A stretch of DNA of 64,000 bases. It comes from Adineta vaga. Lineage: Eukaryota; Animalia; Rotifera. The position numbers and the translations under genes were made by a program. Below are positions 51,543 through 53,787 of this stretch, one piece after another (position 1 is the first letter of the stretch; the number at the start of each line of letters is the position of its first letter). The stretch lies in NCBI GenBank assembly GCA_021613535.1, contig CP075492.1, forward strand, positions 14,183,769 to 14,247,768. The letters are read 5' to 3'. The notes beneath the pieces were generated by a model, which searched no databases, was not told where the DNA came from, and saw nothing but the letters and a program-made list of their open reading frames with translations.

Positions 51543-52327
51543 GGTTCATAAATATCTATTATTAGTCAATTTCGTGGAATGAAATTGAGTAAGATCCACC
51601 AACAACTATAGATACGTTATAGAACAACTGAGAAAATGAACATAATTTGTAATGAGAGAACGTCCACTTCATATATGTTGATTTTTTTCATATATTGTCT
51701 CAACAAAAGAATCACTTTCACTGGTAGAGTTCATCAATCTATAAAGATAAGTTAACAAAGCGTCAGTGATACAATTTGGGGAAAAAATAATGTAAACAGT
51801 GTACATTAATTATTCAGAGTTGCTAGTATGGATATTGCAAAATTCTGTAATCAATATTATTAATGGCGTAAATACCACTGTTTATCGATTATTCAATCGA
51901 TAGAAGATTGAATACAACTTCAAATTCAATAAGTTTTCTATATATAAGTAATCAGAGCAAGCATAAGTTATGTTCTGCTCTACTCTATGTCCTAAGACAC
52001 GTTCTCTGATATAAATATCATCAATATTCAATTTAGAGCGATAAGACAATTTACTCAATACTCCAGAAGACATGCACAAAATTAGCTTATACCTAAACGT
52101 CCTTATCTTTCATCTACCTTCACCCAAATTCTAATTGATATTATCCGTCATATTATAAAAATTCCTCTATCCTCATTACATGATAAACATATTTTCTGAA
52201 TACTCTTTTTCTATGACATGCATCGCATCTCACTTCACCTTTCGTCCAATTTATCTTATACAATGATTGAGCTAATACCTATGATATATATATAAATGAA
52301 TATTTTTTTTTATTATAGTATAAAGCA

Positions 52328-52709
52328 CAAGGGGGAAAAGGCGAAAAGTCGGTACTCTAGTATACTCTTTGTACTCCCTCGGTATGTTATCAGTATCCTT
52401 GAGATTTTTCTTAGTGTTTTCAAGTTCATCAGTGACCAGTGTTACAGTGTACCCGCTGGAGTACAATGTAACTAACACTAGCGAGCAGAAAGCCTCAAAT
52501 ATTCCAAAATACTCCAGTTTCGAAGTATCGTGGAGTATTTGAACATTTCTATTCGCTAGGTTTATTTGCATTGTACTCCAGCGGGTGCACTGTAACACTG
52601 ATCACCGGTGGACTTGAAAATACTGAAAAATCTCTCAAGAATACTCATAATTTATCGCGGGAGTACAAAGAGTATACTGGAGTACCGACTTTTCGCTTTT
52701 TCCCCCTTG
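52328..52709. mobile_element. MITE-like non-autonomous element (about 382 bp) with about 150-bp terminal inverted repeats, flanked by an 8-bp TSD ATAAAGCA (52320-52327 and 52710-52717)
   Basis: Left end 'caagggggaaaaggcgaaaagtcggtactc...' and right end '...gagtaccgacttttcgctttttcccccttg' are reverse complements (about 85-90% identity over about 150 bp). Identical 8-mers abut both ends. Confidence 0.7.
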
Positions 52710-52904
52710 ATAAAGCATGTGTTTGTGTATATAGTTGAAAACGGTCACTGAAACCACATCCTCAGATTGTATTCACTATCATATTCACGCTTTCTCTATT
52801 TATTCTTTTGTAGTTCTTTTTGATCTGACGAATTCATTTCGAAAATGCCTCCTATTAGTTTTTGATCTTCCGACAAATAGATCTTCTTTTTATGGGAGTC
52901 ACAC

Positions 52905-53335
52905 TAGGGGGAAAAAGTGATACTCCAATACGTCAGTACTTCAGCCTACTCCACTCGTACTCCACTAATACTCCAATAAATTTTTCTTTTCAATAAAGTA
53001 TTGGTGGAGTATGGTTGGAGTAGAGTGGAGTAAGGTTGGAATGTCAATAGAGTAGACCTGGAGTAGATTGGAGTAGGATCAGAGTACGAGCGAAGTGAGG
53101 TGGAGTAACGCCGGAATAAACTGGAGTAGTGCTGGATTATGAGCTTCAGCGTATCACCACAGTACATTCTTACTCCAACGCTACTTCAGTCTACTCTAAA
53201 CTACTCTAATCTACTCCAACCCCACTCTAGTCTACTCCAACTCCACTCCAATATACTCCAGTCATACTCCGACCCTACTCCAGTCTTACTCCAAAATATT
53301 TTTTTGGAGTATTGGAGTATCGCTTTTTCCCCCTC
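52905..53335. mobile_element. Second MITE-like element (about 431 bp) with related termini (TAGGGGGAAAAAGTGATACTCCAATAC / reverse complement of GTATTGGAGTATCGCTTTTTCCCCCTC), flanked by a 10-bp TSD GGAGTCACAC (52895-52904 and 53336-53345)
   Basis: The interior is a long imperfect hairpin built from short 'tactcca'/'tggagta' units. Perfect 10/10 direct repeats abut both termini. It shares the terminal GGGGGAAAAAG motif with the element at 52328. Confidence 0.7.
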
Positions 53336-53787
53336 GGAGTCACACCACCACCACCACAGGCAGTATTAGCAGCTGTAAAATAATCCGTTTTTGTTAAAAC
53401 ATGGAAATAATAAAAGGGAGACGGTGATGAAAGTATCAGTGAAAAATATTATTTGTATGTGAGATGTTTTGCTGCGTTTGTGTACTTTGTTGTTTATTGT
53501 ATTTAGTGAATTATTATTCAATATCATCCGTATTTCGTATTGGAACATCGAGTAATTTTTTTCATCCGCTTGGGAAAAACCAACAGCAGCATTTCATATG
53601 TAACTGTAAAGATTGTAATAACATGTAACTCAAGTTGGAATTTTTCATCCTTCCAACAACAATACGTTTTGAGAGGCAATAAATAAAAGAAACCTTATCA
53701 AGTTTTTATTTTTTCCATGTTCTTTTTCGATATAAATGATGTCTGAAATTTCTTCGTTATAGTTAAAATTGAATTTTTCTCCTCCGA

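Follow-up and report, generated by a model that had tools for sequence, protein, structure and literature searches.

Two short palindromic elements, which we call E1 and E2, lie side by side in a 64-kb stretch of the Adineta vaga genome (hereafter the window, meaning the whole stretch of DNA that was analyzed). We found that they are two independent, adjacent insertions of a single family of MITEs (miniature inverted-repeat transposable elements), and we consider it probable that they derive from a bdelloid lineage of DNA transposons with a P / THAP9-type transposase. The two elements have in common the terminus AGGGGGAAAA(A/G)G(C/T)GA, or C(A)AGGGGGAAAA(A/G)G(C/T)GA in its full form, and subterminal arrays of the unit (G)GAGTA(C) at a spacing of about one helical turn. 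The terminus pattern AGGGGGAAAARGYGA has four perfect matches in the window, against an expectation of 0.11, and these are exactly the four element ends; likewise, 27 of the window's 36 TACTCC/GGAGTA hexamers fall within the 813 bp of E1 and E2. Termini and units alike are far beyond chance expectation.

Structure of E1 and E2 and the length of their duplications

E1 and E2 have the features by which MITEs are recognized: they are small (382 and 433 bp), their termini are inverted and bordered by exact 8-bp repeats, and they lack coding capacity, the longest open reading frame (ORF) measuring 108 amino acids (aa). A tblastn search of the window with six transposases of the family described below returned neither a remnant nor any similarity. 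In addition, their first 16 to 17 nucleotides (nt) are those of the full-length transposons L073, L075, L077, and L078 and of the partly assembled L027; the elements that combine this terminus with transposase genes come from bdelloid species other than A. vaga. A preliminary description of this DNA had proposed noncoding, non-autonomous DNA transposons of one family with a common terminal motif, and the shared termini, the unit motif, the exact 8-bp duplications, and the copies in other bdelloids bear this out.

E1 consists of two arms (52328-52513 and 52524-52709) of 186 nt each, which are 84% complementary and separated by a 10-nt loop, and each arm carries the terminus followed by three TACTC units. 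As single-stranded DNA it is predicted to form a hairpin of -142 kcal/mol (z = -24 relative to shuffled sequence). Its position, 52328-52709, between identical copies of the 8-mer ATAAAGCA is as first described, and so are the inverted arms, although these are longer than the roughly 150 bp given then. In E2, the order is terminus, four TACTCC units, an A/T turn, nine GGAGTA units, center, nine TACTCC units, an A/T turn, two GGAGTA units, and terminus. These units, spaced at 10-11, 21, or 32 bp, make up the palindrome that had already been noticed in its interior; the predicted hairpin has a z of -11 relative to shuffled sequence, and the terminal inverted repeat measures 26 nt (96% complementary).

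The preliminary description had placed E2 at 52905-53335, with a 10-bp duplication, and had taken duplication length to vary between 8 and 10 bp. Since the family terminus is C-A-AGGGGG, E2 instead begins with the C at 52904 and ends with the G at 53336, flanked by the 8-bp duplication GAGTCACA rather than by a 10-bp one. The 10-bp GGAGTCACAC is indeed literally present on both sides of E2, because the G before the target and the C after it coincide with the last and first bases of the element, a match of both flank bases that has a chance of 1 in 16. Nor do the duplications vary in length, as E1, E2, and 15 further distinct complete copies with exact repeats all have 8 bp. The predicted empty sites read ...TTATTATAGTATAAAGCATGTGTTTG... 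for E1 and ...TTTTTATGGGAGTCACACCACCACC... for E2, the latter with one GAGTCACA. Since the arms of E1 are 16% diverged and E2 has, at position 2 of each end, a base other than the consensus A (T at one and G at the other), both elements are probably old, and possibly immobile.

Relatives of E1 and E2 were found in Joint Genome Institute (JGI) metagenome contigs, which we scanned with the pattern AGGGGGAAAARGYGAN{0,9}TACTCY. About 58 of the 72 loci lie on AT-rich contigs (GC content 0.25-0.38), with CA before the match and GTACTCC/GGAGTAC arrays after it. We discounted the other 14 or so, whose GC content is at least 0.40 and which lack both the CA prefix and the unit arrays, as unrelated or chance matches; a scan of viral contigs for the terminus gave no match. 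One of the AT-rich contigs (L032) carries a G protein-coupled receptor (GPCR) gene whose named relatives occur only in Rotaria, Adineta, and Didymodactylos; this contig is bdelloid, and we presume the same of the remaining AT-rich contigs. The family terminus in these copies reads CAAGGGGGAAAA(A/G)GCGA (other written forms are CAAGGGGG and CAAGGGGGAAAAAGCGA). Positions 1 and 2 of the terminus were left unconstrained by the search pattern, and they are C in 86% and A in 91%, respectively, of 80 distinct ends.

When ends were paired, 11 distinct complete elements emerged, 62-402 bp in size, whose flanking 8-bp repeats are exact (L031 and L042, being one and the same insertion, were counted once), and in six more, 7 of the 8 repeat positions agree. 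The metagenome copies L001, L024, and L043 have arms built in the same way as those of E2. There are also mini-elements of 62-72 bp, barely more than two termini placed back to back (L067, 169-230; L035, 1460-1521; L010, 4789-4860 / L052, 1231-1302), of which the one in L067 has the exact 8-bp duplication GTAGTTTC. Such mini-elements may be minimal mobilizable units or remnants of abortive repair.

We assessed the choice of insertion site from 83 non-redundant ends (loci L001-L078), all oriented outward. T occurs at position -11 in 59 of these ends (p = 8e-12) and G at position -10 in 49 (p = 4e-19), and the complete ATG stands at -12..-10 in 22, compared with 0-4 at other offsets. Because every end was oriented outward, the preferred pre-insertion site is a 16-bp palindrome, ATG-N-[8 bp]-N-CAT, in which the motif lies outside the duplication. 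E2 is flanked by ATG on the left and GTG on the right, and thus by TG on both sides.

Full-length relatives in other bdelloids and the predicted fold of their transposase

In the metagenome locus L027 (7,057 bp), the terminus lies at position 249; next come about 17 GGGAGTAC units and ORFs of 289 and 696 aa, and the same unit array recurs at the end of the contig. We found 93 homologues of the 696-aa ORF. For 50 of these the source is named, and it is a bdelloid rotifer in every case (Rotaria spp., A. steineri, A. ricciae, and, with a single protein, A. vaga); the remaining 43 are unnamed. Fetching the DNA around four of these homologues gave the elements L073, L075, and L078 and the left end of L077 (Table 1). 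The full-length elements from A. steineri, A. ricciae, and Rotaria socialis are 5-8 kb long, they share the 16-nt terminus, their 8-bp duplications are exact, and they encode a protein of about 850-1,200 aa.

Adineta and Rotaria elements have the terminal 11-16 nt (CAAGGGGGAAA...) in common, even where their transposases are only 38% identical, whereas the subterminal unit is swapped between subfamilies (GGAGTAC, GAAGTA, GGATTC, and AGCACC). Such swapping of units next to a constant terminus may point to a modular split, in which the terminus would be read by the core of the transposase and the helically phased array by an N-terminal domain that evolves fast. The left end of L073 and L077 is built of the terminus, two units, a turn, and an inverted array, which is the layout of the E2 arm.

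As a separate observation, both unit arrays point the same way in L073 (6229-6500 and 13650-13920) and in L027 (249-460 and 6995-7057). Where complete, these arrays comprise about 17-24 units with a 10-11-bp period. A hairpin-like turn right after the left terminus gives the arrays their common direction, so that the two ends are structurally asymmetric.

To which superfamily does this transposase belong? In an alignment of 47 homologues, we found near-invariant D111 (within SEDCSAI), D225 (STDGDPKY), and E472 (SQPCENxFRxxRS), together with an equally near-invariant Q280-D281-x2-H284. Judging from the alignment, these residues would constitute a DDE triad and a D(2)H motif, both of which characterize P-type transposases, as does an 8-bp duplication (PMC3698922). 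An AlphaFold model of the family transposase (predicted local distance difference test [pLDDT] 79.8, predicted template modeling [pTM] score 0.79) has the predicted architecture of a P-type RNase-H-like core, with D...D...E, a long helical insertion, and the D(2)H motif. The best Foldseek match of this model is the Drosophila P element transposase (6p5a; E = 3.9e-11, target-normalized TM-score 0.69), and the next matches are ISCth4 (4.9e-4), Transib (5.9e-4), and Hermes (4.6e-3). The P element transposase was also far ahead in model comparison, where RAG1-like, Mutator-type, and Hermes (hAT) proteins reached 8.4, 7.7, and 7.2. The same termini are thus tied, in four bdelloid genomes, to a gene for a transposase of predicted P fold.

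When 1.84 billion representative proteins were searched with a profile, the family proved very large, with 6,211 clusters at E <= 1e-3, of which 1,711 reached <= 1e-30. Within this larger family, P0197 matches PF12017 (P-element helix-turn-helix; 4.6e-7) and, weakly, PF21787. When 57 further members were scanned, PF12017 was found in five (best 2.1e-8) and PF21787 (TNP-like RNase H N-terminal) in five (best 2.8e-5), and no hAT or Mutator-like element (MULE) domain was found in any of the 57. Most scanned members have no Pfam match at all, and the representative library carries no names. The duplications point to the P superfamily as well, where 7-8 bp (rarely 9 bp) is usual, being 8 bp long in E1, E2, the 11 metagenome copies, and the four elements from named species, and so does a palindromic target motif that reaches outside the duplication. 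The hAT- or Mutator-like partner that the preliminary description had suspected is not what we found: by predicted fold, motifs, and some Pfam matches, the relatives' transposase appears to be a divergent P-type enzyme.

Weighing a proposed P-type origin against other readings

Several observations weigh against a P-type origin of E1 and E2. The A. vaga copies that we examined are these two, the only ones in the window. The annotated A. vaga homologue (I4U23_010671, or P0193) lies outside the window, on a 16.27-Mb contig, and is 39% identical to the L027 transposase. By eye, it reads VFSLASVSYD in place of the SEDCSAI of its relatives, and we could discern no glutamate motif of the SQPCEN type, a sequence that probably represents a decayed or mis-modeled copy. 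The inner terminus of E1 (GCGAAAAGTCGG) and the GYGATACTCC of E2 do not match the inner termini of the full-length elements we recovered, and the TG of the target motif is absent from both flanks of E1. As for the superfamily, the closest proteins (the L027 ORFs, P0131, P0125-P0127, and P0193) have no Pfam match, and searches of PDB sequences with phmmer and profile hmmsearch returned only low-complexity acidic-tail matches. No THAP domain was detected in 9 + 57 proteins or in the N-terminal ORF of L027, many of the gene models being partial. The assignment to the superfamily draws on predicted structure, on motifs, and on matches in more distant members.

Some of these points also favor an alternative, in which E1 and E2 are genuine MITEs that were moved in A. 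vaga by another transposase, their 16-nt terminus reflecting cross-mobilization or convergence: in A. vaga we saw no autonomous copy, the catalytic-motif regions of the distant annotated homologue are missing or altered where these were compared, and the inner termini are unlike those of the full-length elements. We nevertheless consider this alternative unlikely, since the elements agree with the lineage in terminus, in unit type, in arm architecture, and in their 8-bp duplication, and since the arm layout of E2 is that of the left end in both A. steineri (L073) and A. ricciae (L077). Moreover, one and the same 16-nt terminus accompanies transposases that are only 38% identical, so that a diverged inner terminus appears to be normal in this lineage.

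MITEs of the hAT superfamily, moved by an Ac/hobo/Buster-type transposase that binds short subterminal repeats, would share the 8-bp duplications of both elements; the subterminal repeats do resemble those of Ac, and the CAAGG of the E1 terminus fits the hAT-type pattern YARNG. Yet a hAT transposase (BED finger, hAT C-terminal dimerization domain, Hermes-like fold) is not what the autonomous relatives encode, and we regard a hAT origin as very improbable. We rate Mutator-like or Foldback-type elements lower still. Their marks would be long inverted arms composed of short subrepeats and, at E2, a duplication of 9-10 bp, and both elements are foldbacks with short-unit arrays, with GGAGTCACAC literally repeated over 10 bp at E2; we found, however, neither a duplication of 9-11 bp nor a MULE-type transposase. 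Both of these partners are largely refuted. An explanation without mobile elements, as a local palindromic or regulatory structure or as the product of local duplication, would suit the promoter-type intergenic location and the long hairpins that both form, but it has next to no probability: each element has an exact 8-bp direct repeat, and the two repeats differ; dozens of related copies occupy unrelated bdelloid loci, with duplications of their own; and the 178-bp spacer and both interiors are unrelated, so that this reading is refuted. Local tandem duplication in particular is excluded, since E1 and E2 share only their termini and unit motif, their flanks differ, and copies occur in other bdelloids.

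If E1 and E2 do belong to the P / THAP9-type lineage, a transposase supplied in trans would mobilize both. Its variable N-terminal region would bind the phased subterminal units, its RNase-H-like core would synapse and cut at the invariant 16-17-nt terminus, and integration would take place with an 8-bp stagger at sites favoring ATG-N-[8 bp]-N-CAT. Because its arm layout equals the left end of L073 and L077, E2 would be a symmetrized pair of "left ends" (terminus, few units, A/T turn, inverted array), and E1 a symmetrized pair of "right-type" ends, whose arms carry the terminus and direct units. The Drosophila P element is cut at the donor site with a 17-nt stagger, and we speculate, by analogy, that the invariant terminus of 16-17 nt recalls this cut.

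The P-type lineage proposed here resembles the Drosophila P element and its superfamily (P, 1360, Galileo, and human THAP9) in its 8-bp duplication, in its short terminal inverted repeats with putative internal transposase-binding repeats, and in its predicted DDE triad and D(2)H motif. The P element ends in CATGATGAAATAACATAAGG, to which the bdelloid terminus CAAGGGGGAAAAAGCG is unrelated. The bdelloid transposase is only 14% identical to that of P, its closest members miss the Pfam P-element models, and no THAP domain was detected in the proteins scanned. Furthermore, each end of the full-length bdelloid element has at least 20 phased 10-11-bp units, in the same orientation at both ends, whereas P has one or two sites. 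The target motif of P is a 14-bp palindrome, ATRGTCCGGACWAT, that extends beyond the duplication (PMC2577343), and the bdelloid ATG-N-N8-N-CAT likewise reaches outside it.

Insect parallels, in which short noncoding elements resemble an autonomous P-type element in their termini alone, are BuT5 of the Drosophila repleta group, a MITE tied to P elements that has 8-bp (or 8-9-bp) duplications (PMC3698922), and the P-related MITEs of Anopheles gambiae (PMC1562414). BuT5, however, is about 1 kb long, with 3-bp inverted repeats and no foldback, whereas E1 and E2 are near-perfect palindromes of one end type, and their host is a rotifer. Galileo has a P-type transposase, very long arms with internal tandem repeats, and a 15-bp palindromic target (PMC4168063), and many of its two-arm copies lack the transposase gene; Galileo is thus an example of foldback-like long arms with internal repeats inside the P superfamily. 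The Galileo duplications are 7 bp long, though, and its arms run from hundreds of bp to kb with repeats of about 140 bp, in place of phased units of 10-11 bp. MITEs of the hAT superfamily such as Mar in Drosophila (PMC3517528) are similar in their 8-bp duplication, short termini, and subterminal repeats, and differ in that the autonomous relatives' transposase is not hAT-like here.

We also raise the possibility, about which we are rather doubtful, that the clade is an undescribed, deep-branching, THAP-less branch of the P superfamily, with a near-invariant 16-nt G5A5 terminus (CAAGGGGGAAAAAGCG), swapped units, and a 16-bp target palindrome of its own. If true, the CAAGGGGGAAAAAGCG terminus, kept across Adineta, Rotaria, and transposases that are 38% identical, would mark the clade. 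Our analysis links a bdelloid MITE family to autonomous elements and, on the modeled fold, would place it in the P superfamily. Bdelloids serve as a model of how transposons behave when conventional sex is lacking, and most of their repeats are still unclassified (PMC7943196). Bdelloid MITEs are handled only generically by Nowell et al. (2021; PMC7943196), who mention a manually curated A. vaga repeat library in which the E1/E2 family may already be catalogued; in literature searches on the terminus string, on bdelloid MITEs, and on bdelloid P elements, we found nothing relevant. The 16-nt terminus, the phased and changing units, the 8-bp duplication, and the ATG-N-N8-N-CAT motif would improve bdelloid repeat annotation, and they offer a compact system for the study of end recognition by P-type transposases.

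Genomic setting of the two insertions

The window has a GC content of about 31% throughout, and the products of its ORFs are metazoan (a stanniocalcin-like protein, a rhodopsin-type receptor, and NHL-repeat and ankyrin-repeat proteins). E1 and E2 both lie inside a 2.2-kb intergenic region between divergent genes, and such a promoter region is a typical landing zone of cut-and-paste elements. At this locus, two unannotated palindromes upstream of two genes are thereby explained as old transposon insertions. The preliminary description had them inserted 200 bp apart; they are indeed two neighboring insertions, and the gap between them measures 194 bp. The spacer at 52718-52895 contains neither the family terminus nor unit arrays.

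On the left, three adjoining minus-strand ORFs would appear to form one host gene, the last ORF of which has no Pfam match. On the right, the ankyrin ORF is 100% identical to A. vaga I4U23_015424 (on a 20.35-Mb contig), and its next relatives are in other bdelloid rotifers, which marks the window as chromosomal DNA of A. vaga.

Table 1. Positions of E1, E2, and their surroundings in the window, and of related elements in other bdelloid sequences (positions in the latter refer to the named locus)
Feature	Sequence	Position	Strand	Description
Left neighbor, host gene	Window	50560..51542	-	Three adjoining ORFs; ATG of first ORF at 51542, ~790 bp from E1
E1 target-site duplication, left copy	Window	52320..52327	.	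ATAAAGCA; same 8-mer abuts both E1 ends
E1 foldback MITE	Window	52328..52709	.	382 bp; termini CAAGGGGGAAAAGGCGAAAAGTCGGTACTC / CAAGGGGGAAAAAGCGAAAAGTCGGTACTC
E1 target-site duplication, right copy	Window	52710..52717	.	ATAAAGCA; same 8-mer as left
Spacer, host intergenic DNA	Window	52718..52895	.	Unique; 178 bp between the two insertions
E2 target-site duplication, left copy	Window	52896..52903	.	GAGTCACA; 8/8 match under consensus C-A-AGGGGG boundaries; ATG at -12..-10 (52892-52894)
E2 foldback MITE	Window	52904..53336	.	433 bp; termini CTAGGGGGAAAAAGTGATACTCCAATAC / CGAGGGGGAAAAAGCGATACTCCAATAC
E2 left outer block	Window	52921..52975	+	4 TACTCC units; then A/T-rich turn 52976-53004
E2 inner left array	Window	53005..53130	-	9 GGAGTA units, spacing 10-11 / 21-22 bp
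E2 inner right array	Window	53171..53293	+	9 TACTCC units mirroring inner left array; Tandem Repeats Finder (TRF) periods 21 and 41
E2 right end	Window	53305..53336	-	2 GGAGTA units and right terminus
E2 target-site duplication, right copy	Window	53337..53344	.	GAGTCACA; same 8-mer as left
Right neighbor, ankyrin-repeat gene	Window	53788..55068	+	426-aa ORF; start ~450 bp from E2
Full-length element	A. steineri L073	6229-13920		7.7 kb; 8-bp duplication GTGTAGGT; TGAAGTA, ~24 and ~22 units, 11-bp period
Full-length element	A. ricciae L075	6153-11190		5.0 kb; 8-bp duplication GGTTAGCG; GGATTC; transposase 38% identical to that of L027
Element, left end only	A. ricciae L077			Subterminal unit GAAGTA
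Full-length element	R. socialis L078	6649-14623		8.0 kb; 8-bp duplication GAAAAAAT; subterminal unit GAAGTA
Non-autonomous element	R. socialis L078	3603-5908		2.3 kb; duplication ATCCTATA; AGCACC; terminus CAAGGGGGAAAGTGC

Three further features of the window lie away from E1 and E2. A short inverted pair of the GGGTGT / ACACCC type (ATCCTGAGGGTGTGGGTGAAGGTG ... CACCCACACCCACACCCTCAAGAT) occurs at 43888-43975; it resembles the bdelloid telomeric hexamer, and the receptor ORF (44206-45192) is about 230 bp away. Two tRNA-Cys(GCA) genes on the same strand (8263-8335 and 13685-13758) are separated by 5.4 kb, and a tandem repeat with a 78-bp period (2.5 copies, 86% matches) is found at 30231-30423.

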